Part shown: positions 3,656-50,500 of the stretch, in pieces | Numbering within the stretch: position 1 is the stretch's first letter | Layout of the letters: every line of letters begins with the position of its first letter | Notes under the pieces: generated by a model | The model's input: only the letters and a program-made list of their open reading frames with translations | Databases searched by the model: none | What the model was told of the DNA's origin: nothing | Source: a virus | Virus record (IMG/VR): IMGVR_UViG_3300005529_000005 | Coordinates: 4,499 to 68,498 of that record | DNA length: 64,000 nt | Direction: 5' to 3' (one strand) | Position numbers and translations under genes: made by a program

Positions 3656-5104
3656 ATGGCCGCCGACATTCCCGTCATCATGACCGCGGCCGGCGCTCAG
3701 CCGACCCCGCCGGCTACGCTTCTCGCCGACCTGATCCAGATCGTCCTCGCGACGAACTCGGGCTACACGGCGAACCTCCCGGGCTCGCTCGTGGAGGACG
3801 TTAGCTCGACCGAGGTCGCGGGCCTCGCGGTGGCGGACTCCGCGCGCGTCGAGACCATCAACTCGATCAGCCCGAACGGGGCGAACCTCTTCATCCTCTC
3901 GCAGCTCGGCCAGGTCTACATCGGCCCCGGCGCCGCGCCCGCGCCGCCGTCGAACACGTCGGTCGAGGTCACCTTCACGGCGCTCGACCCGAACACGTCG
4001 GCCCCGCTCTCGGGCTACGTCGTCACGATGGGCTTCGTGGTCTCCGACGGGACCTACCAGTACATCGCGCAGGACAACGGGGTGACCAACTCCAGCGGTC
4101 AGGTCACCGTCTTCTGCGTCTCGCCGACGACCGGCTCCTGGGCGGTCCCGACGAACTCCGTCACCACCATCGTGACCTCCGTCCCCTCGACCGTGTCGCT
4201 GAGCTGCGCGAACCCGACGCCGGGGACCTCCGGGGCGGCCGCGGAGACGGCGGAGCAGTACCTCGCCCGCGTCATGCAGGCGGGGCAGGCCGTCTCGACC
4301 GGGTCGACGACGCTCCTGAAGACGCTTCTTGGCCAGGTCTCCGGGGTGCAGCAACGCCTGATCTCGACGCGCCAGCAGACCGGGTCGTGGGAGATCATCG
4401 TCGGCGGCGGTGACCCGTACCAGGTCGCGGGCGCGATCTTCGAGTCCGGGCTCGACGTGTCGACCCTGGTCGGGTCGACGCTCCTCGTGACGAGCATCAC
4501 CCAGGCGAACCCGGGGGTCGTCACGACCAACCTCAACCACGGCTACACGACCGGGCAGACCGCCCAGATGAACGGCATCGTCGGCATGACGCCGCTGAAC
4601 GGCGTCAACGTGACGGTGACGGTCCTGACCGAGAAGACCTTCAGCATCGCGGTCAACACGTCGGGGATGCCCGCCTACGTCTCCGGCGGGATCGTGACGC
4701 CCAACCTCCGGAACCAGTCGATCAACATCTACGACGCGCCGGACGTGATCGTCGTGGTCTTCGTCCAGCCGCCGCAGCAGACCCTCACGATCGCGGCGAC
4801 GTACTCGACCACGGCCGCCAACTTCGCCTCCCAGGCGGCGGTAGCGCAGCTCGCCGCGCCGGCCATGGCCGCCTACGTCAACTCGATCACGGTCGGCGCC
4901 GCGCTGAGCCTCCTGATCCTCGAGGCCACGTTCCTCGCCGCCGTCTCCTCCGTCCTGCCGTCCTCGCAAATCTCCGCGCTCAACTTCGCGGTGTCGATCA
5001 ACGGCGTCCCGACCACGCCGTCCCTCGGCTCGTCGCTGATCCTCGGGGACCCGGAGAGCTACTTCTTCGCGACGACGGCCGGCATGGCCGTGTCGCAGGC
5101 CTGA
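3656..5104 (+). CDS. Baseplate J-like wedge protein with inserted beta-rich domain
   Basis: 482 aa; TPGTSGAAAETAEQYLARV resembles the J-family G..E+D..YR.R motif; internal ITQANPGVVTTNLNHGYTTG domain. Confidence 0.8.
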   Translation: MAADIPVIMTAAGAQPTPPATLLADLIQIVLATNSGYTANLPGSLVEDVSSTEVAGLAVADSARVETINSISPNGANLFILSQLGQVYIGPGAAPAPPSNTSVEVTFTALDPNTSAPLSGYVVTMGFVVSDGTYQYIAQDNGVTNSSGQVTVFCVSPTTGSWAVPTNSVTTIVTSVPSTVSLSCANPTPGTSGAAAETAEQYLARVMQAGQAVSTGSTTLLKTLLGQVSGVQQRLISTRQQTGSWEIIVGGGDPYQVAGAIFESGLDVSTLVGSTLLVTSITQANPGVVTTNLNHGYTTGQTAQMNGIVGMTPLNGVNVTVTVLTEKTFSIAVNTSGMPAYVSGGIVTPNLRNQSINIYDAPDVIVVVFVQPPQQTLTIAATYSTTAANFASQAAVAQLAAPAMAAYVNSITVGAALSLLILEATFLAAVSSVLPSSQISALNFAVSINGVPTTPSLGSSLILGDPESYFFATTAGMAVSQA

Positions 5105-40431: not shown

Positions 40432-40831
40432 CCATGGCATGCGACGCAGCGATCCGGCACGTCAGGCGGGTGCTGGACGAGAGGTTCCTGAGCATGAACG
40501 CCAGCGACGTCTACGCCGAGGTCAGGTGGTGGACCCCGGACACGATCGTCGAGGCGCTCGACTCGCTCGTCGCCGCGCGGGCCGCGATCAAGGTCGAGGA
40601 CCGCTACCACGTCCTGGGACCGCTCCGGTGAGCGCGGCGCGGGGCGACGAGGTCGTCTACCTCTCCCTGACGGGGGAGACGTGGGACGCCGTGGTCGCGG
40701 CGGTCGGTCCCGAGGACCGCGTCACCCTCCTCGTCGGGAGCTTCGAGCTCGAACTGAGCCGCGTTCCCCTTGACGACACCCGCACTCTTCCTGGATCGTG
40801 GTCCCCGCTCGGACAGGGAGAGGGCGATTGA
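40428..40831 (+). other. Two small hypothetical ORFs (40428..40631; 40628..40831)
   Basis: GTGA-type coupled overlaps. Confidence 0.45.
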
Positions 40832-41430
40832 CCAAGAGACCCAAGCCGGCCGCGGCCGTCGACTTCGACGGGAGGGACGTACCCGCGATGCGGCCCGTCA
40901 TGACGCCGCTGACGAAGATCGTCCCGTACCCGCTCAACCCGCGCACGCACCCGCCCGCTCAGGTCGCGCTCCTCGCCGGCATGATGACGAAGCACGGCGT
41001 CGACCAGCCGATCGTCATGCGCGAGGAGGACGGGTTCATCCTGAAGGGTCACGGGCGGCGCCTCGCGGCGATCGCGGCCGCGATGGACGCCTTCCCGGTG
41101 ATCTGGCGCGCCGGCCTCTCGGAGGAAGAGGCGCGCGCGATGCGCATCGAGGACAACCAGGTCGCGCTGCTCGCCGGTTGGGACCGAGAGTTGATCCACC
41201 AGGAGGTCGTCAGCCTGAAGACGGCGGGCTACGACGTGTCGACGCTCGGCTTCGGCGACGCGCAGCTGGTCCAGTTCACCACGACGCCGGGACCGCCCGC
41301 TCAGTTCCCCGCCTTCGGGGAGAACATCCCCACCGACTTCTGCTGCCCGAAGTGCGGCTACAAGTGGTCGGGGAAGCCGACGCCCGAGTCGGACGGCGAC
41401 CGCGCGGCTCCCAAGCGGAAGAAGGCGTGA
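40828..41430 (+). CDS. ParB/Srx N-terminal domain protein with C-terminal Zn ribbon
   Basis: PYPLNPRTH...VDQPIV...ILKGHGRRLAA...MRIEDNQ; CPKCGYKW. Confidence 0.85.
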   Translation: MTKRPKPAAAVDFDGRDVPAMRPVMTPLTKIVPYPLNPRTHPPAQVALLAGMMTKHGVDQPIVMREEDGFILKGHGRRLAAIAAAMDAFPVIWRAGLSEEEARAMRIEDNQVALLAGWDRELIHQEVVSLKTAGYDVSTLGFGDAQLVQFTTTPGPPAQFPAFGENIPTDFCCPKCGYKWSGKPTPESDGDRAAPKRKKA

Positions 41431-41431
41431 T

Positions 41432-43099
41432 GTGGCTCTCCTCCTGCGGATCAAGGATCCCCAGTTCTTCCGCAAGCGGAGCACCGGGCAACCGGTGCGC
41501 ACCATCGACCTCGACGCGGAGCCGTGTCCGACGATCATGGCGAACGGGATCAGGAGCGTCACCGTCGGGCGCTACGAGCTGGTCGACGACGGGAGGCCCC
41601 CGGTGATCGACGCGACGAAGCCTCCCTACCGCGTCCCGTCCATGGCGGAGATCGCGGCGGTCGAGCCGAACGGGCTGAAGGTGATCTCCACGTTCGCGGG
41701 ATGCGGCGGCTCCTCGCTCGGCTACCGGATGGCGGGCTTCAAGGTCCTATGGGCGTCGGAGTTCGTCGAGCGCGCGCGGCTCGACTACGAGGCGAACGCC
41801 GCTCAGGGGACGGTCGTCGACGGCCGCGACATCCGCCAGGTCGACCCCCTGGAGGTCCTGAGGACGGTCGGCCTTCAGCCGGGCGAGCTCGACGTGCTCG
41901 ATGGCTCCCCGCCGTGCGCGTCCTTCTCGACCTCCGGCAAGCGCGACAAGAAGTGGGGAACGGTCAGCAAGTACAGCGACCGGGAGCAGCGCACCGACGA
42001 CCTCTTCTTCGAGTTCGTTCGGTTCGCGAAGGCGATGCGGCCTCGCGTGTTCGTGGCGGAGAACGTCTCCGGGCTCGTGAAGGGCGTCGCGAAGGGCTAC
42101 TTCCTGGAGATCCTGGCCGCGATGAAGAAGGTCGGCTACCGCGTGGAGGCGCGCCTCCTCGACGCTCAGTGGCTCGGCGTCCCGCAGCAGCGGCAGCGGA
42201 TCATCTTCGTCGGCGTGCGCAGGGACCTCGGCCTCGAGCCCGCCTACCCGTCGCCGCTGCCCTACCGATATAGCGTACGCGACGCTCTGCCCTGGATCAG
42301 CCGCGCGATCCACGACACGTCGGGAGACCGAAGCGTCGGGGAAATCACGAACCGGCCGGCGCCGACGATCACGGTGGGCGGCCTGCAGCCCAACGCCTGC
42401 CACTTCAAGGTCGTCGAGGCGACGGTCTTCCAGAGCGACAAGTACACCCACCTGAAGGACGTGACCGACACGCCCGCGCTGACGATCCGGGCGACGCCCG
42501 GCGAGGGGAAGAAGAAGCCCTTCGTGGTCGAGCGCGTCGTCCAGGGTCCGGAGGTCGACCAGCGCAACGAGGGTCGCGACCTGAGCGACGGCCCCGCGCC
42601 GACGGTCGTCGCCGGCGACGCTGAGAAGCGCACGCCGCGCCAGTTCGTGGTCGAGCAGTTCGTCGTGGAGCCCGAGACCGACATCAGCGGCCAGGCGATC
42701 GGCAAGGAGTACGACCGCCTGAACCCGGGGCAGGAGTCGGACAAGTACTTCAACCTGAAGCGCGCGCCGATCAGCGAGCCGTGCCAGACGGTGACCGCCT
42801 CGGGCGGGATGAACTCCGGGATCGCGAGCGTGACGCACCCGACGGAGAAGCGGAAGTTCTCGATCGCCGAGCTGCGCCGCGTATGCGGCTTCCCGGACGA
42901 CTTCGCGCTCGGCGGGACCTACGCGCAGCAGTGGGAGCGGATGGGGCGCGCGGTCCCGCCGGTGATGATGGCCGCGATCGCGCGCAGCGTCGCCGGCGTG
43001 CTGAAGGAGGCGAAGAATGTGCGGCCTGCTCGGAGCGTTCGATCTCCCCCGGTTCGACGTCGCCGCGCGGCTCGACCTGATAGCGCATCGCGGGCCTGA
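41432..43099 (+). CDS. C5-cytosine DNA methyltransferase homolog with Arg in motif X; predicted carboxymethyltransferase
   Basis: STFAGCGGSSLG (I), DGSPPCASFS (IV), AENVSGL (VI), QQRQRIIFVG (VIII), ERMGRAVPP (X; GNAV replaced by GRAV). Confidence 0.88.
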   Translation: MALLLRIKDPQFFRKRSTGQPVRTIDLDAEPCPTIMANGIRSVTVGRYELVDDGRPPVIDATKPPYRVPSMAEIAAVEPNGLKVISTFAGCGGSSLGYRMAGFKVLWASEFVERARLDYEANAAQGTVVDGRDIRQVDPLEVLRTVGLQPGELDVLDGSPPCASFSTSGKRDKKWGTVSKYSDREQRTDDLFFEFVRFAKAMRPRVFVAENVSGLVKGVAKGYFLEILAAMKKVGYRVEARLLDAQWLGVPQQRQRIIFVGVRRDLGLEPAYPSPLPYRYSVRDALPWISRAIHDTSGDRSVGEITNRPAPTITVGGLQPNACHFKVVEATVFQSDKYTHLKDVTDTPALTIRATPGEGKKKPFVVERVVQGPEVDQRNEGRDLSDGPAPTVVAGDAEKRTPRQFVVEQFVVEPETDISGQAIGKEYDRLNPGQESDKYFNLKRAPISEPCQTVTASGGMNSGIASVTHPTEKRKFSIAELRRVCGFPDDFALGGTYAQQWERMGRAVPPVMMAAIARSVAGVLKEAKNVRPARSVRSPPVRRRRAARPDSASRA

Positions 43100-44390
43100 C
43101 GGCTCCGGGGTCGCGTCGTCCGGGCCTGCGGTCCACGGCCACGTCCGCCTCGCCCTCCTCGACCTGAGCGAGGCCGGCGCGCAGCCGTTCAGGCGAGGCG
43201 AGGGCCTCCTCTCCTTCAACGGTGAGATTTGGAACTGGCGCGCCGTCCGGGAGGAGCTGGAGCGCGCGGACGAGGTCTTCCGCACGTCGTGCGACACGGA
43301 GGTCCTCGCGGCCGCGCTCGACCGTTGGGGCGTCGGGGAGACGCTCCCGCGCCTCGAGGGCATGTTCGCCTTCGCGTGGTCGAAGGGGCGGACGCACGTC
43401 CTCGCGCGCGACCGCTTCGGGAAGATCCCGCTCCACGTCTCCCGCTTCGCGCGGTCCTTCGTCTGGTCGAGCGAGATGAAGGGGCTCGGGCCCGAGCACC
43501 CGTCGGCGCCGCTCCCGCCCGGGACGATCCTCGATCTGACCACCGGGGAACTGGAGACCTGGTACGCGCTCCCGCGGCGCCACGCGGTCGAGTCCCCCGC
43601 GGCGATCGCGGCTGACCTCCGCGCCGGCGTGGCGGCCCGGATCGTCTCCGACGCGCCGCTGTGCTGCCTGATCTCCGGCGGGCTCGACTCGTCGCTGATC
43701 CTGACGGAGGCGCGCCGGCTGAAGCCAGACGTCGTCGCCTTCACCGCCCGCCACGACGACCGCTCCGCCGACCTGAGGGCCGCGCGGCGCCTCTGCGCCG
43801 AGCTCGACGTGAGCCTGGTCGAGGTCCCCGTGGGCGCGCCGACGGCGGACACGCTCGCGGCGGCCGTCCGCGCGATCGAACTGCCGAGCAAGGCCCAGGT
43901 GGAGATCGCGGCGCTGTGCGTGCCGCTCGCTCGCGCGATCGCCGCGGAGGGCTTCAAGGCCTGCCTCTCCGGGGAGGCGGCGGACGAACTCTTCGGCGGC
44001 TACGGCTCGATGTGCATCAAGGGGGCGCGCGCGGACGACGAGGCGTGGCGCGCGATCCGCGTCGCTCAGATCGAGAAGATGGCGCGCGGAAACTTCGTGC
44101 GGTGCAACAAGGCGTTCATGGCGGCGGGCGTCGAGTGCCGCCTCCCGTTCATGGAGCGACGGCTCGTGGAGCGCGTGATCAACCTGAGGAAGGTCGACTG
44201 CCCGCCCGGGAAGAAGGCGCTGAAGGAGGCCGCGCGCGGTCTCGTCCCGCGGTGGGTGATCTCCCGCACCAAGCAGACGTTCCAGGGAGGCGCGGGGATG
44301 GACGAGGCGGCGGCGCGGGCGGTGGCGAACCCGAAGGTCTTCTACGGGGCAGAGTTCCGGTCAGCCTTCGGCGCGGCCGTCGCGGCGTAG
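43017..44390 (+). CDS. Asparagine synthetase B-like glutamine amidotransferase/amide ligase
   Basis: AGGAGG RBS; MCG Ntn nucleophile, HRGPDG, GHVRLALLD, NGEIWN, RDRFGKIPL, SGGLDSS PP-loop, SGEAADELFGGY, ECRLPF. Confidence 0.93.
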   Translation: MCGLLGAFDLPRFDVAARLDLIAHRGPDGSGVASSGPAVHGHVRLALLDLSEAGAQPFRRGEGLLSFNGEIWNWRAVREELERADEVFRTSCDTEVLAAALDRWGVGETLPRLEGMFAFAWSKGRTHVLARDRFGKIPLHVSRFARSFVWSSEMKGLGPEHPSAPLPPGTILDLTTGELETWYALPRRHAVESPAAIAADLRAGVAARIVSDAPLCCLISGGLDSSLILTEARRLKPDVVAFTARHDDRSADLRAARRLCAELDVSLVEVPVGAPTADTLAAAVRAIELPSKAQVEIAALCVPLARAIAAEGFKACLSGEAADELFGGYGSMCIKGARADDEAWRAIRVAQIEKMARGNFVRCNKAFMAAGVECRLPFMERRLVERVINLRKVDCPPGKKALKEAARGLVPRWVISRTKQTFQGGAGMDEAAARAVANPKVFYGAEFRSAFGAAVAA

Positions 44391-44815
44391 AACGCGGTCC
44401 AGAAGCGCCGCGCCTCGTCGACGTGGGGGACGTTCCACCAGCGGTTCAGGCCGGACGGGTGAGGCGCCACGGTGACCTCGCCGCAGTCCCGGGAGAGCCG
44501 GGTCCACTCGAAATAGCCGACGGGTGAGACGCGGAAGGCGCGCGCGACGTTCCAACCGAGCAGTACGACGTGGTCGCGCGCGGCGACGACCTCCGCCATC
44601 GCGTCGGCCCGCGCGCGGGCCTCCTCGACGGGGAAGGCGTCTCCGGCGCCCGCCTTCCCGGGGAACGTGGCGAAGACGTTCGCCCGGTCGAAGGCGGTCA
44701 GGAAGGCGCGGAGGTCGAGGCCGCAGAGGGCGGCGAGCCGCCCCCCGCAGCGTCCGGCCAGCGGCGTAGGGTTGCCGCTCGGGCCGGGCGCTTGACCTAT
44801 GATCAGCGGCTTCAC
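44342..44815 (-). CDS. Uracil-DNA glycosylase superfamily protein
   Basis: LIIGQAPG (motif A), VVLLG..VARAF, PHPSGLNRWWN (motif B). Confidence 0.8.
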   Translation of the reverse strand: MKPLIIGQAPGPSGNPTPLAGRCGGRLAALCGLDLRAFLTAFDRANVFATFPGKAGAGDAFPVEEARARADAMAEVVAARDHVVLLGWNVARAFRVSPVGYFEWTRLSRDCGEVTVAPHPSGLNRWWNVPHVDEARRFWTAFYAATAAPKADRNSAP

Positions 44816-45096
44816 GACTGAAGCCAGAAGGCGAGGGCGGGAGAAGGCAACTCCCCGACGAGGACGATCTCGTCCGAGGTCCACTCCTCGCCGTCGGCGT
44901 CGACGTAAAGCTCCTTCCCGGCGCGATCCTTGGTCCGCTGGCTATCCCAACAGACCTCCGTCTCCCCGACGAAGTCGCAGTCGAGCGACCCGTCGGGGAG
45001 CCGGGAGAAGGACTCCTCGCGCACGAGGGCGTTCGCCTCTACCACGTCGGCGGTCGCGACGATGATCACGCCTGTCGGGCTGAAGGCCTTTGCCAT
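44812..45096 (-). CDS. Acidic hypothetical protein
   Basis: Coupled ORF MAKAFSPTG... Confidence 0.55.
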   Translation of the reverse strand: MAKAFSPTGVIIVATADVVEANALVREESFSRLPDGSLDCDFVGETEVCWDSQRTKDRAGKELYVDADGEEWTSDEIVLVGELPSPALAFWLQS

Positions 45097-45101
45097 GGCG
45101 G

Positions 45102-46070
45102 TCAGCCCTTCGGGGCGGGGAGCGTGACGACGAACTTTCCGTCCTTCCGCTCGCACTTGGCGCCGACGCGCTCGCAGACGCGCCGAAGCGTGACGGCGCA
45201 GGCCTTCCAGCCGCCGATCTTCTTGCAGAGGTCCGCCTCGGTCATGCCCTCGGGTCCCGCCGCGACGGCGGTGTCGAGGAGCTTCGCCAGTTTCGACCCC
45301 TCCCGGAGGCCGTCCGGGCGGGCGGAGACGGGCGTCCGCGCGTTCGCCTTGGCGGCGGGCGCGGCGGCCTTCTTCGCGCGCGGCGTCGCCGGCGCCTTCC
45401 GGGCGGTCTTCGCGGGGGTCTTCGTCGAGGTCTTCTTGGTCGCGGTCTTAGCCATCTCAGTCTCCTCAGGTTGCGCCGCCGTGGCGGGCGCGGGTTTAGC
45501 CGGGGCGGACGCCGTCGGCGGGTCGTAGACGAACTTGCCCGGGCCGACCTGAGTGATCAGGGGGAGCCCGGACTTCTCCCAGGCGGCGTCGGCCGCCTGG
45601 CAACGATCGGCGTGGAGGTCGCCCGCCCGGTGACCGGACGGCCGCTTACACCACGCTCCCGCCCGTACGCCGCACGCGGGACACGCGACGGCGAGCACGG
45701 GATGCTTGTGGGCGGTGAAGTCGGGGACTTCTCCGCCGCTCGCCGGCGCGGGCGCCGACGGTGACTCGGTGATCGGCGGGAGGTCGGGCCCGAGGAGGGC
45801 CGCGTCCACCGCCCGGCCTTGCGCGGCCGCGAGGATTTGGTCGAGCCGCGCGCGCGGGACGCGCGGCGGGAGGGTCTTCGGCTCAGGCTTCACGTGCTCC
45901 TTCTCCTTCCACTTCGTCGGCTCCTGGAAGCGGCCGCGGCGGAGCCGCTCCAGGTTCGCCTCGATCTCCTCCAGCCGTTCGGGCGTCATCCCGATCCAGC
46001 GGTTCAGGACGTCGGGGACGCCGCCGTCCCGCACCTGCTGAGCCCGCGCGGTGATCTCCTCCGGGGTCAT
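45102..46070 (-). CDS. Multidomain protein: Zn finger plus Lys/Ala-rich histone-H1-like wHTH (possible internal start at 45455)
   Basis: CPACGVRAGAWC...H Zn finger; MAKTATKKTSTKTPAK... preceded by an in-frame GAGGAG RBS. Confidence 0.6.
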   Translation of the reverse strand: MTPEEITARAQQVRDGGVPDVLNRWIGMTPERLEEIEANLERLRRGRFQEPTKWKEKEHVKPEPKTLPPRVPRARLDQILAAAQGRAVDAALLGPDLPPITESPSAPAPASGGEVPDFTAHKHPVLAVACPACGVRAGAWCKRPSGHRAGDLHADRCQAADAAWEKSGLPLITQVGPGKFVYDPPTASAPAKPAPATAAQPEETEMAKTATKKTSTKTPAKTARKAPATPRAKKAAAPAAKANARTPVSARPDGLREGSKLAKLLDTAVAAGPEGMTEADLCKKIGGWKACAVTLRRVCERVGAKCERKDGKFVVTLPAPKG

Positions 46071-46357
46071 TTGGGCAGGTCCTTCAGGCGGGTCCGCGCG
46101 CCCGCGTGGGAGACCCACCGGGCCTCGCCGTCGTCGAGGTCCACGTCGTAGCCGCGCTCCGTGGTGGTCTCGTAGGACCTCACGATAGTGCCGGGCTTCC
46201 CGTCGAGGAGAACGCGCGCGCCAGCGGCGGGGTCAGCATCAACTCGTTGGATCGGCGGCTCCCAAAGCCCGCATTTACAAGCGTTCCCGTTCCAAGAATC
46301 GATACCGCCCTTCCGCCAACCGCATCTTTGGCAATGGGGATGAACCGGCTCGGTCAT
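46067..46357 (-). CDS. Small Cys-rich/SH3-like protein
   Basis: CQRCGW...CKC. Confidence 0.5.
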   Translation of the reverse strand: MTEPVHPHCQRCGWRKGGIDSWNGNACKCGLWEPPIQRVDADPAAGARVLLDGKPGTIVRSYETTTERGYDVDLDDGEARWVSHAGARTRLKDLPK

Positions 46358-46362
46358 CGCGG

Positions 46363-46848
46363 TCACCCGACGCGCCGCCGGCCGGCCATATCGACGTCCT
46401 GGAGAACCTCGTCGATCGGCGTGACCTTGTCGCCGATGGCGGCCTGAAGGATCATGCACGCCTGATCGATGATGTCGGCGCCGCCGTGAGGAGGCTTCGC
46501 CGCCATGATCAGCGGGTGAAGGAGCGCGTGCTGAGCCGCGTCCGCCTCCAGCTTGCCGTAGCGGTTGCGCGGAGCCTGAAGCGCCTTCACGACGCGGCGC
46601 ACGACGCCCGCGATCACGCCGAGCGCCTCCGCGCTCTGGCCGAGCGCGCGCTCGACGCCGCGCACGTAGCCGATGGCGCGGTCGAGTCCCTCCTGCTGTA
46701 TCTCCGGCTCGGGGACCTGCCAGTCGAAGCCCGGCGAGCTCGGGAACGTGATCAGCCAGATTCCGCGCCCGTAGGTCAGCCGCGCGCGGACCTCCTTCCC
46801 GTTCATGGCGACCCAGTGGGCGCCGTCTACCTTCTCGATCTTCCACAT
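46363..46848 (-). CDS. Hypothetical protein
   Basis: GGGGAG RBS; MWKIEKVDG... Confidence 0.6.
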   Translation of the reverse strand: MWKIEKVDGAHWVAMNGKEVRARLTYGRGIWLITFPSSPGFDWQVPEPEIQQEGLDRAIGYVRGVERALGQSAEALGVIAGVVRRVVKALQAPRNRYGKLEADAAQHALLHPLIMAAKPPHGGADIIDQACMILQAAIGDKVTPIDEVLQDVDMAGRRRVG

Positions 46849-46886
46849 CTTCGGTTCTCCCTTTGGCGCTCGAAGCGGCACCCCGT

Positions 46887-46912
46887 GGGGCCGGGCGGTG
46901 AGGCCCGGCCCC
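46887..46912. promoter_or_regulatory. Perfect 10-bp hairpin after the DUF932 gene
   Basis: GGGGCCGGGC-GGTGAG-GCCCGGCCCC; no U-tract. Confidence 0.4.
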
Positions 46913-46930
46913 CTAGGCCGCCGCCCGGAA

Positions 46931-48157
46931 TCAGGCGACCTTGTCGAGGATGTGCTTCGCCTCAAGCTCCTGCTGGAGGCGGTCGTCCGTGTTCAGGACG
47001 CCGCGCGCGTGCGCGGTGATGGCCTGAGCCATGTCCCACGCGGAGCGCGGCGGACGGCCCTCCTCCTTCTCACCCTGCTCGAGGATGGCCTTCGCCTTCG
47101 TCAGCGAGAAGTTGCGGGCCTTCAGGAAGGCGATCGCGCCCTCCTCGTCGTCCGCGACCTTCGCCGCCTTGGCGAGCTTCACGCCGGCGACGAGCTTGTC
47201 GGTCGCGCCGTTCGCGTAGGCGGTCAGCGCGGGGACCGCCTGACGGAGCCAGCGGTCGGGCGCCGCCCGGTTGTGGATGATGCGGACCTCCTCGAAGTTC
47301 TCCACGCCCCAGAGGTTCCGGTTCATGCAGACGCCGCGGAGGAAGAACGCCGCGATCTTCGCGCTGCGCGTCCCGACCTCGCTGTTCTGGCAGAAGAAGC
47401 CCCTGAACATGAGGTCCGGATTCCCGTTCGCCAGCTTGCCGACCTCGATCGGGTTGCGGTCGTCGACCAGGAACATGAACACGTCCCGGTCGGAGGCGTA
47501 GAGCGTGGTGGAGTCGGAGGTCACCGGAGCCTCCGGGTCGTAGAGGCGCGTCGACCAGTCGAGCACGCCCGGGATCTTCCAGCGCATCTCGCCGCGCCCG
47601 GTCCCGGCGACGGCCTGAACCGCCTTCACGATCTCGTAGTCCGGGATGCGGCCGTAGTCGGGGCCGGTCGCCGCGTACAGCTGGTCGGCGCCGCCGTAGA
47701 GCTTGATCTCCTCGACCTCGCGGGCGAAGCGGAGCCGGTAGGCGAGGGCGTCCGAGACGATCTGACTCGGAAGCTCCCGGTAGTGAGCGGCGGGCGCCTT
47801 CGCGAGCGCGCACATCTGACCGAACGCCCAGTGGGTCGGGGCGATCTCGCGCGCCTCGACGCGGTCGCCGTGGTCGATCTTCACGCCGACGGTGAGGCGG
47901 TGAAGGTCGGCCGCCGTCTTCGGCTCCGGAGAGATCAGGTCGAAGGCGTCCGTCTTCGTTCGGGTCTGGAAGCTCCCGTCCCAGAACTTCTTCTTGAAGT
48001 CGTGCAAGTCGGTCAGCGACGTGAACCGCTGGTCCGCCGGGCGCGCCATCCACTGCATCGAGACCTCGCCGTTGTGACCGCCGGTGAACGGGTTCACCTC
48101 GTAAGGTGCCCGGGCCGTGGTCGCGCTGGTCTCGTTCTGCTTCGTGATGTCCAACAT
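46931..48157 (-). CDS. DUF932-family protein
   Basis: WMARPADQRFTSL, PTHWAFGQMC, GPDYGRIPD, LYASDRDVFMFL, NSEVG...FFLRGVCMNRNLWG. Confidence 0.85.
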   Translation of the reverse strand: MLDITKQNETSATTARAPYEVNPFTGGHNGEVSMQWMARPADQRFTSLTDLHDFKKKFWDGSFQTRTKTDAFDLISPEPKTAADLHRLTVGVKIDHGDRVEAREIAPTHWAFGQMCALAKAPAAHYRELPSQIVSDALAYRLRFAREVEEIKLYGGADQLYAATGPDYGRIPDYEIVKAVQAVAGTGRGEMRWKIPGVLDWSTRLYDPEAPVTSDSTTLYASDRDVFMFLVDDRNPIEVGKLANGNPDLMFRGFFCQNSEVGTRSAKIAAFFLRGVCMNRNLWGVENFEEVRIIHNRAAPDRWLRQAVPALTAYANGATDKLVAGVKLAKAAKVADDEEGAIAFLKARNFSLTKAKAILEQGEKEEGRPPRSAWDMAQAITAHARGVLNTDDRLQQELEAKHILDKVA

Positions 48158-48248
48158 GGTAGTCCCTTGTTTGAGGGCTCACTGGCCTCGTCAGCACCGG
48201 AGGAAACCGGCGGACCGTCGGGGCGCCGGAGCGCCCCTAGGTTTCGGC

Positions 48249-48766
48249 CTAGTCGCGGATCATCGTGAGGAGGCGGGACGGCGTCATCTTCTCGTCCCGC
48301 GCCTGAGCGTCGGCGGCGAACCAGCCATCGGCGCGGAGGCGCCGGTAGATCGCGCGCGCTTCCTCCGCGCTGATCCCGCGCTCGATGATCGATCGGGTGG
48401 CGCCGATCAGGGCGAGAACGGTCGCGGTCTCACCGTGGCACTCGAACGACGCCCAGCAGACGCAGGGCGCGGGAGCCATCCTGAGCCAGTGGGTAATCAT
48501 GACGCGCTCCTATTGTCGTAGAGCGGGACGCGCGTCGCGTCGTAGGGGTCCGAGGGTGAGCCCGGCCACACGCGGCCGTTGTAGGAGACGTAGCCGAAGG
48601 TCGACCCGCTCGCGCGAACGAGTAGCGCGGGAGGGACCTCGGAGGCCCCGAGGCCCGAGGCGTCGCGCGCCTTGACGAACATCTCGGAGGCCTGCCTCAG
48701 CGAGGTAACCTCATATCGGCGTCGCGCGATCTGGATGAAGAGGGACTCGGTCAGCGTAGTTTGCAT
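48249..48766 (-). other. Two small hypothetical ORFs (48249..48500; 48497..48766)
   Basis: CAGGAG RBS before 48766; coupled. Confidence 0.55.
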
Positions 48767-48820
48767 CTTCAGGTTCTCCTGTCGGCGGCGGGGAGGAATT
48801 TCCCGTCCGGCGCACCGCTA

Positions 48821-48850
48821 TTGAAGGGTGCGGGGAGCCAGATGTACAGT
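48821..48850 (+). promoter_or_regulatory. Putative sigma70 promoter for the CmoA-like gene
   Basis: TTGAAG-N18-TACAGT in the divergent intergenic region, upstream of AGGAGG/GTG at 48876. Confidence 0.4.
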
Positions 48851-48875
48851 GCGGTTTGACCCCCAGGAGGATCAG

Positions 48876-49541
48876 GTGGCTAGGAAGAAGCTCGACGTAC
48901 CCCGTGAGTGGAGCTGGTCGGCGGCGGTCGCCAAGCACTTCGATTCGCACGTTCGGGAGAGCCTCCCGTGGTACGACCTCGCCACCGGCGCCGTCGCCCA
49001 CATCGCGCGCGCCTACGTCCCCCGGGAGGGCGTAGTGATCGACGTCGGCGCCTCCACGGGCAACGTCGGGCGCGCGCTCGCGCCGGTCCTGAAGGCGAGG
49101 TCAGCGACGCTCCGCGCGATCGACTCGTCGGTGGAGATGCGCGACGTCTATCGCGGTCCGGGCGTGCTCGAGGTCGTGGACGCGGAGGAGTTCGACTTCG
49201 CCGGCGCCGCTCCCGACCTGATCGTGTGCTTCCTCGCGCTGATGTTCGTCCCGGTCTCGACGCGGAGGCTCCTGGTCGAGCGCATGAAGGAGGCGCTGCG
49301 CCCGGGCGGCGCGATCATCGTCTTCGACAAGATGGTGCCGAGGCCGGGCTACGTCGGGACCGTCGCCTACCGGCTGACGCTCGCCGCGAAGATGGACGCC
49401 GGCGCCTCCCCCGCCGAGGTCGTGGCGAAGGAGTTGTCGATCGCCGGCGTCCAGCGTCCCATGTCAGAGGGCGAGCTCGGCGGCTTCGTCGAGGTCTTCC
49501 GCTTCGGGGACTTCGCGGGGTTCGTGCACGAGCGCGACTGA
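48876..49541 (+). CDS. CmoA-like SAM-dependent enzyme (carboxy-SAM synthase homolog)
   Basis: WSWSAAVAKHFDSHVRESLPWY, VIDVGASTG, AIDSSVEM, FLALMFV, LRPGGAIIVFDK follow the CmoA pattern ([22 protein letters not shown]...LNPGGALVLSEK, recalled from memory). Confidence 0.8.
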   Translation: MARKKLDVPREWSWSAAVAKHFDSHVRESLPWYDLATGAVAHIARAYVPREGVVIDVGASTGNVGRALAPVLKARSATLRAIDSSVEMRDVYRGPGVLEVVDAEEFDFAGAAPDLIVCFLALMFVPVSTRRLLVERMKEALRPGGAIIVFDKMVPRPGYVGTVAYRLTLAAKMDAGASPAEVVAKELSIAGVQRPMSEGELGGFVEVFRFGDFAGFVHERD

Positions 49542-49759
49542 GCTGGTCAGCCAGGTCTCGCGCGGCGCGGCGGGGGCGATCTCGGCGCGGCCGGCCGGCG
49601 TGATGACCGTCCGCCGCGGCCGAGGCCCGGGCTTGTCGCCACGGATCATCCCGGCCTTGATCAGCGACTCTACCGCCCGCGCGCGTGGGCCCGCGACGGA
49701 GAGTGGGACGCCCTCCGGGCGCCCCACGTGCTCGAGCAGAACGGCCCTCTGCCTCGGCG

Positions 49760-50047
49760 TCACGCGGCCCGCCGCTTGGCCTGACGCTTCCCCTCGGTCC
49801 TCCCGACGACGGTCCCGGTCGGGGCGCCGTCGAAGAAGAACGAGACGGGGACCTGGAGCACGCCCGCGATCTGCTGAAGGCGGCTCGCCCCGACGCGGTT
49901 CGCGCCCTTCTCGTACTTCTGGACCTGTTGGAAGGTCAGCCCGAGACGCTCGCCGAGCGTCGTCTGGCTCATGCTGAGCATCATCCTCTTCATGCGGATG
50001 CGTTTGCCGACCCACGTGTCGACCGGCTGCGGTGACCGCTTCGCCAT
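49760..50047 (-). CDS. XRE-family HTH regulator (alphaproteobacterial chromosomal type)
   Basis: PVDTWVGKRIRMKR...SQTTLGERLGLTFQQVQKYEKGANRVGASRL. Confidence 0.9.
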   Translation of the reverse strand: MAKRSPQPVDTWVGKRIRMKRMMLSMSQTTLGERLGLTFQQVQKYEKGANRVGASRLQQIAGVLQVPVSFFFDGAPTGTVVGRTEGKRQAKRRAA

Positions 50048-50500
50048 CGTTCTCTCCTACGTTGTTCGGGGAGTATTCCCCGAGTGAAACCTATTTCCGG
50101 TAGAAGACGGGTGTCCACTGGCCGTGCGGTATTTTTTTCTCTATCCTCCGAGTCGTCTGGTTCGCCCGGCAGCGGTCTCGACATCAACATCATCGCAGCG
50201 CCTCGGCGCATTGCACTCAGGAGCACCATCGCCGGGCCTTCTGGGCCGCAGGGAGCGGCGCATCGCTCCGACCCTCTTCCGGGTCGTCGCGGCAAACCGA
50301 GGATGGAGACCTGTAGTCCTCGGGGACCTGAGGTCGGGACGCTCGTGCGCGCGAGCGGAGCGCGGCGACCCGGAAGGGGATCACGAACACCACGCCCGCG
50401 ACAAAGGGCAAGGTCGGCGGCGAGGCGCGCGCTGGAAGAACCGGGCGCGCCTCGCCGGCCAAAATGTTCCACGTGAAACATTCCTACCGGAACACCGTAG

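Follow-up and report, generated by a model that had tools for sequence, protein, structure and literature searches.

The CmoA-like gene and its surroundings

The window, by which we mean the whole 64,000-nt stretch that was analysed (positions 4,499 to 68,498 of the virus record IMGVR_UViG_3300005529_000005), comes from a complete record of 74,093 bp with direct terminal repeats and a G+C content of 69%. It contains a gene for a CmoA-like protein and, some distance away, a run of predicted DNA-modification genes, with the following features:

40798–41430, plus strand: ParB_N-domain protein, first gene of the module (weak Pfam ParB_N match; homologues precede CmoX in related loci)
41432–43099, plus strand: predicted CmoX-type DNA cytosine C5-carboxymethyltransferase (best PDB match 8YF3, SpCmoX)
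43017–44390, plus strand: predicted CmoY-type asparagine-synthetase-like ligase with an N-terminal glutaminase domain (Pfam Asn_synthase and GATase_6/7; Cys2 present)
44342–44884, minus strand: UDG-superfamily gene, convergent on CmoY (Pfam UDG at threshold)
48821–48850, plus strand: candidate sigma-70-like promoter (−35 TTGAAG at 48821–48826, 18-nt spacer, −10 TACAGT at 48845–48850)
48865–48870, plus strand: Shine-Dalgarno sequence AGGAGG, 5 nt before the GTG start
48876–49541, plus strand: CmoA-like gene, predicted divergent carboxy-SAM (Cx-SAM) synthase, 221 aa, GTG start

Judged by their sequences, the ParB-CmoX-CmoY genes are the published CmoA-CmoX-CmoY module. The window CmoX matched 8YF3 with E = 1.9e-65, as against 1e-22 for ordinary C5-methyltransferases (C5-MTases), and contained the SPPC motif and the Arg350 equivalent, both invariant in a three-way alignment. 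In SpCmoX, Arg350 contacts the Cx-SAM carboxylate, and the wild-type enzyme takes Cx-SAM rather than SAM (PMC12783734); since the window CmoX keeps the equivalent residue, the phage would need a source of Cx-SAM. A large uncharacterised cluster of ligases with a glutaminase domain was noted by Yang et al. (PMC12783734). UDG homologues lie directly after CmoX or CmoY in the related loci L008–L012, co-conserved with the module.

The CmoA-like reading frame was intact, and its GTG start at 48876 suited the N-termini of homologues better than a longer frame opening at 48828. The first-pass annotation had described the gene as set apart from its presumed partners, and this held: it begins about 4.5 kb past the CmoY stop codon and 5.8 kb downstream of the CmoX stop, and it is the sole plus-strand gene there, flanked by a minus-strand run (44342–48766) on one side and a minus-strand XRE-type HTH gene (49760–50047) on the other. 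Because of this isolation on the plus strand no co-transcription is possible, and the gene orientation requires a promoter of its own.

A promoter reading TTGAAG-N18-TACAGT had been proposed for this role. The literal sequence was present, ending 25 nt ahead of the start codon, and its −10 element was conserved in two related ~72-kb phages, but it is a weak match to the sigma-70 consensus (8 of 12 positions). Matches of that quality occurred at 0.17 per kb per strand within the window, giving a chance expectation of ~0.02 for the 109-nt spacer on the correct strand. Scanning 48400–50200 for sigma-70 promoters and terminators called nothing, the candidate lying just under the scan threshold. 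At the aligned position, one of the related phages (L008) read TTGAAA-N18-TACAGT with an identical −10 block, GATGTACAGT, and in the other (L012) the −10 read TACAAT with no recognisable −35. The site is thus best described as a plausible candidate promoter. The divergent spacer (48767–48875) also contained a longer block, running from TATTGAA to GATGTACAGT, that was conserved in all three phages (window, L008 and L012), which may serve both divergent transcription units or act as an operator.

Its distance from its partners (4.5 kb) and its solitary place on the strand would fit a decaying or inactive remnant displaced from the operon. We consider such decay extremely unlikely, as the intact frame showed a strong GC3 codon bias (0.92) and a strong Shine-Dalgarno box, and 35 positions were invariant across relatives of 43–74% identity. 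In addition, the closest relatives, L008 and L012, kept the same displaced arrangement together with the conserved upstream block.

Family membership, fold and tree of the CmoA-like protein

Pfam found only generic methyltransferase domains in the CmoA-like protein. In NCBIfam, the best two matches were the CmoA models TIGR00740 and PRK15451 (E ~5e-12), ahead of other methyltransferase families, with scores below the curated cut-offs (46.2 bits against 193.3, and 45.5 against 285); a search of the whole phage genome likewise left the CmoA models under cut-off. The top PDB sequence matches were E. coli CmoA (EcCmoA) entries, 4GEK (E = 1.8e-11) and 4IWN. Aligning the profile of 143 relatives of the window protein with that of 31 bacterial CmoAs by hhalign gave a probability of 99.9% and E = 3.7e-31 over 219 columns, with the window protein itself only about 22–23% identical to EcCmoA and to SpCmoA, the enzyme of phage S-B43.

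A confident AF2 model built from 45 relatives (pLDDT 92.7, pTM 0.89) showed the CmoA fold, with a Rossmann core, an N-terminal helix and a helical lid. Three CmoA entries ranked first in a Foldseek search with this model (TM 0.76–0.80), and VIA-align gave Z scores of 25.0 for 4GEK, 24.8 for 1IM8 and 23.9 for 4IWN, with an rmsd of 2.2–2.4 over 205–210 residues (2.4 over 210 for E. coli CmoA). The runners-up were the CysG/BelI C-methyltransferases and MM_2633 (Z = 23.3–23.6), and the next group followed at 18.6. The modelled fold places the window protein in a CmoA/CysG structural cluster, and its chemistry is not assignable from the fold alone.

Like E. coli CmoA, the window protein had the N-terminal F-D-x-H...P-x-Y motif, the SAM-binding Asp/Gly/Ser residues and equivalents of both Lys185 and Lys198. 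Six of the seven SAM-binding residues of EcCmoA, as listed by Byrne et al. 2013 (PMC3663124), were kept, with Tyr39, Asp62, Gly64, Ser66, Asp89 and Asp117 corresponding to Tyr33, Asp56, Gly58, Ser60, Asp83 and Asp102. The exception was Asn132, whose column held Phe119; SpCmoA also does without this Asn. The two proteins further differ at the lid, where EcCmoA has Arg199 and Glu203 and the window protein Glu186 and Ala190, and in their partner, which is CmoB in E. coli and a DNA C5-MTase in the window.

These comparisons bear on whether the protein could be an ordinary SAM-dependent methyltransferase, either CmoM-like and esterifying the carboxymethyl group, or CysG/BelI-like and C-methylating a small molecule, with Cx-SAM drawn from the host. 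CmoM esterifies the carboxymethyl group on tRNA. The generic Pfam matches, the nearly equal scores of the CysG/BelI structures and the absence of Arg199 would all suit such an enzyme. The CysG/BelI proteins (9FCL, 9FCE) also showed weak sequence similarity to the window protein (E ~4e-7). However, CmoA came first in every profile comparison, and the CysG/BelI proteins have no link to DNA-modification genes. Moreover, their His121-His122 pair, the importance of which is gathered from the titles of mutant PDB entries only, aligned with Met123-Phe124 of the window protein.

A library search returned 1,228 representative clusters at E < 1e-3, 117 of them at E < 1e-30. In a quick, midpoint-rooted tree built with no outgroup, the window clade had an SH-aLRT value of 100 and a long stem branch, and it joined, with weak support, the S-B43 and Staphylococcus types (SH-aLRT 88), apart from the PaBG and Y3 homologues, which keep Arg199, and from the bacterial clade. 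A single loss of Arg199 is suggested by this weakly supported grouping. One Yersinia genome (G001:C56:3500-4195) carried a second CmoA-like paralogue beside its canonical cmoA, scoring 150 bits and so below the 193-bit cut-off.

The Arg199 column

Arg199 is the only residue contacting the carboxyl group in EcCmoA (Kim 2015, PMC4482062), and it is salt-bridged to the carboxylate of Cx-SAM (Byrne 2013, PMC3663124; Kim 2015, PMC4482062). In an ungapped alignment by eye, the first-pass annotation had placed a Glu at this position, with an Arg eight residues later. The peptide on which it drew, AEVVAKELSIAGVQRP, corresponds to residues 180–195 of the frame starting at GTG 48876, and the two residues are encoded as follows:

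49431–49433, plus strand: codon of Glu186, which aligns with Arg199 of E. coli CmoA
49455–49457, plus strand: Arg194 codon, in the Gly-x-Gln-Arg-Pro loop after helix 179–189

Both placements were correct. A proper alignment might have been expected to restore Arg at position 199, and none did: phmmer against PDB 4GEK, MAFFT and hhalign all assigned Glu186 to the Arg199 column, with no gap over the stretch, and the Arg eight residues past it is Arg194. In the AF2 model, lid helix 179–189 leads into the Gly-x-Gln-Arg-Pro loop.

To place the column in its families, we compared 31 diverse bacterial CmoAs scoring above the TIGR00740 cut-off in 101 Pseudomonadota genomes, 119 relatives of the S-B43 enzyme and 143 relatives of the window protein. 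The bacterial set came from a phylum-wide family search, which was used in place of a contig search with EcCmoA that gave only enterobacterial sequences of at least 84% identity. All three alignments shared an invariant Lys and, ten residues on, a Pro; in the bacterial set, 20 sequences had Pro at this column and 10 had Thr. Because these Lys and Pro anchors are common to the three families, the Arg199 column can be equated without gaps:

Bacterial type: Lys198 anchor, then Arg199, Glu203 at +4, Ile, Leu or Arg207 at +8, and Pro or Thr208
S-B43 type: Lys187 anchor, then Glu188, Arg192 at +4, Lys196 at +8, and Pro197
Window type: Lys185 anchor, then Glu186, Ala190 at +4, Arg194 at +8, and Pro195

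Conservation within each type was nearly complete. Arg199 and Glu203 were invariant in the bacterial CmoAs (31/31); Glu188 was present in 118 of the 119 S-B43-type sequences, and Arg192 and Lys196 each in all 119; and Lys185, Glu186, Gly191, Gln193, Arg194 and Pro195 were invariant in the window type (143/143). Among wider representatives of the window clade, nearly all had Glu or Asp at the position of Glu186. We also considered realigning Arg192 of SpCmoA to Arg199 (R-D-M-L against R-S-M-L) and rejected it, since it would require three inserted and four deleted residues and runs against the ungapped Lys-to-Pro anchor backed by all three family profiles.

SpCmoA (UniProt A0A514ABH6), a validated Cx-SAM synthase, carries Glu188 in this column, and the S-B05 CmoA matches it at 100% identity. 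SpCmoA forms Cx-SAM from SAM and prephenate with a kcat of 2.33 s−1, compared with 0.23 s−1 for EcCmoA (PMC12783734); Arg199 is not mentioned in that paper (Yang et al. 2025) or its supplement. Like the window protein, SpCmoA has the invariant Lys before the Glu and the Pro nine residues after it, and it belongs to a system in which a phage CmoA serves a CmoX with SPPC and Arg350 alongside an AsnB-like CmoY (Yang et al., Nat Commun 2025, PMC12783734). By contrast, it has an invariant Arg192 one helical turn past the Glu, its Lys196 takes the position of Arg194 in the window protein, and the window protein is without the helix-AGF segment before strand 6. The window system also differs in that its CmoA-like gene is not adjacent to CmoX, and in that its CmoY carries a glutaminase domain, unlike the glycine ligase SpCmoY.

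The missing Arg199 is real rather than an alignment artefact, and it is a family trait rather than a defect. Since the validated SpCmoA has a Glu as well, Glu186 is not a warning sign. Phage CmoA homologues near C5-MTase or AsnB-like genes (loci L147–L150) had Arg in this column in Erwinia Y3 and Pseudomonas PaBG, Ser in Staphylococcus SPbeta-like phages and Thr in Pseudomonas SM1; the neighbours of the SM1 homologue are a ParB_N_like_MT protein and a hypothetical protein of 518 aa rather than an annotated C5-MTase. Like the window protein, the PaBG and Y3 homologues adjoin AsnB-like genes (PaBG has ParB and C5-MTase genes beside its CmoA homologue as well) and share a Gly-Val-(Gln/Leu)-x-Pro loop motif, but they keep Arg199 and Glu203 and have Val at the position of Arg194. 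Given the Glu of SpCmoA and the Arg, Ser or Thr of the other phage homologues, Arg199 is, on present alignments, a mark of the bacterial tRNA-pathway clade and not of Cx-SAM synthesis as such.

What the Glu contributes can be considered from the bacterial enzyme. Cx-SAM stays tightly bound to EcCmoA, the low activity of which is ascribed to product inhibition (Kim 2015, PMC4482062), and for this reason the idea that fast phage enzymes have shed the Arg clamp is reasonable as a hypothesis. More tentatively, we speculate that the Arg-to-Glu inversion might be an adaptive trait of a phage Cx-SAM synthase lineage (S-B43, the Staphylococcus Ser type and the window clade), in which losing the clamp relieves product binding and inhibition and so provides genome-scale flux; the Glu might in addition function as a base or eject the product electrostatically. 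If true, this would account for the ten-fold higher kcat of SpCmoA, and Arg199 would be a marker of low-flux tRNA enzymes rather than of Cx-SAM chemistry.

In some of the more remote members of the clade, Val, Ile, Phe or Met took the place of Arg194 as well, and carboxylate binding therefore cannot be assigned to any one residue. Neighbourhoods of such variants, drawn from viral contigs, showed that members lacking Arg194 (Gln-Ile-Pro or Gln-Phe-Pro) still adjoin C5-MTases with the motif X Gly-Arg-Ala-Val, and Arg194 is therefore not indispensable; with P0155 as the query, the scan of viral contigs found no locus. The C5-MTases beside Arg194-less CmoAs (L142:5045-5992, L143, L145 and L146) have Phe-Pro-Cys in place of Ser-Pro-Pro-Cys and keep the motif X Arg (Gly-Arg-Ala-Val), and such a candidate CmoX subgroup would escape the published SPPC-plus-R350 filter.

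Gene linkage and the predicted pathway

Of 24 related viral loci, 16 had a CmoX homologue within ~5 kb of the window-type CmoA, and in most of these the two genes lay side by side. Gene order varied, with ParB-CmoA-CmoX-CmoY-UDG in L010 and L011, ParB-CmoY-CmoX-CmoA in L013 and ParB-CmoX-CmoY-CmoA in L018, and CmoX overlaps CmoA in the Moraxella phage Mcat8. A metagenomic representative of 559 aa (P0206) fuses a complete CmoX, including SPPC and the motif X Arg, to a complete window-type CmoA. No other CmoA candidate was found in the CmoX-bearing loci of the sample. Together with the profile comparisons and the Met123-Phe124 alignment above, this makes an ordinary methyltransferase very unlikely, as a gene that accompanies CmoX in very different phages, with the two joined in P0206, fits a supplier of cofactor better than a second modifier.

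Loci without a C5-MTase neighbour had, directly upstream, a gene for a ~500-aa protein that overlaps the CmoA start (L025:4625-6142, L016:8472-9992, L015:2576-4096 and L030:8514-9998). A central class-I methyltransferase domain was found in the three that were scanned (L025, L016 and L030), the L015 protein being assigned by ORF size and position, and a weak N-terminal ParB_N match was seen in L025 and L016 only. The methyltransferase part had no PDB relative in L025 and no NCBIfam relative in L025 or L030. This protein may represent a second kind of Cx-SAM user, distinct from the C5-MTases.

The first-pass annotation had left open whether the gene encodes a rearranged Cx-SAM synthase or an enzyme making a different SAM analogue, which would change the predicted base. 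Such an analogue could carry another acyl or alkyl group on the sulfonium or come from a different donor, and CmoX would then install a base other than 5-carboxymethylcytosine. The lid does differ from that of EcCmoA (Arg199 is replaced by Glu and Asn132 by Phe, and a shortened helix leads into a Gly-x-Gln-Arg-Pro loop), the window clade sits on a long stem branch, and some loci pair this CmoA type with a ParB-class-I-MTase fusion rather than CmoX. Nevertheless, the Arg contacting the carboxylate of Cx-SAM is retained in the partner CmoX, a carboxylate is also required by the partner CmoY as an ATP-dependent amide ligase, and SpCmoA makes plain Cx-SAM with the same Glu. We know of no other SAM-analogue synthase of the CmoA fold. 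A different analogue, for which no positive support emerged, is in our view very unlikely.

The rearranged synthase, on the other hand, was well supported by family, fold, neighbourhood, the CmoX-CmoA fusion and the shared Glu of SpCmoA, and we think it quite probable from the sequences that the gene product is a divergent Cx-SAM synthase belonging to the CmoA-CmoX-CmoY system already published. This reading is based on family membership, fold, column equivalence, conservation and gene linkage, from which we infer the enzymatic activity of the window protein, the role of Arg194 and the dependence on prephenate. The protein would bind SAM in its Rossmann-fold pocket under the helical lid and, with prephenate as the CO2 donor, carboxylate the SAM methyl group to give Cx-SAM. 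The phage CmoX (41432–43099) would then use Cx-SAM to carboxymethylate cytosine C5 in DNA, and the glutaminase-bearing CmoY (43017–44390) would turn the carboxylate into an amide. In the lid, an invariant Glu occupies the place of Arg199, as in the validated S-B43 CmoA. In the window clade Arg194, in the loop that follows the lid helix, may supply a positive charge instead; in the S-B43 type the Arg lies one helical turn past the Glu.

The Arg199 oddity had been regarded as the main caveat to the pathway. The oddity is real, but given the Arg of CmoX, the need of CmoY for a carboxylate and the Glu of SpCmoA, the caveat largely dissolves, and with it the main doubt on the predicted pathway of this 74-kb phage is removed. 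Arg199 was proposed in 2013 as a signature of Cx-SAM-binding proteins, yet neither the one validated phage enzyme nor a very large phage clade conforms to it. As the curated CmoA models score far under cut-off for this clade, its usual annotation is a generic methyltransferase. Fast, weakly product-inhibited Cx-SAM synthases would be of practical value for enzymatic carboxymethylation and DNA labelling, and, once the clade is recognised, the prediction of DNA hypermodification derived from 5-carboxymethylcytosine can be extended to many further phages, among them phages of high-GC hosts.
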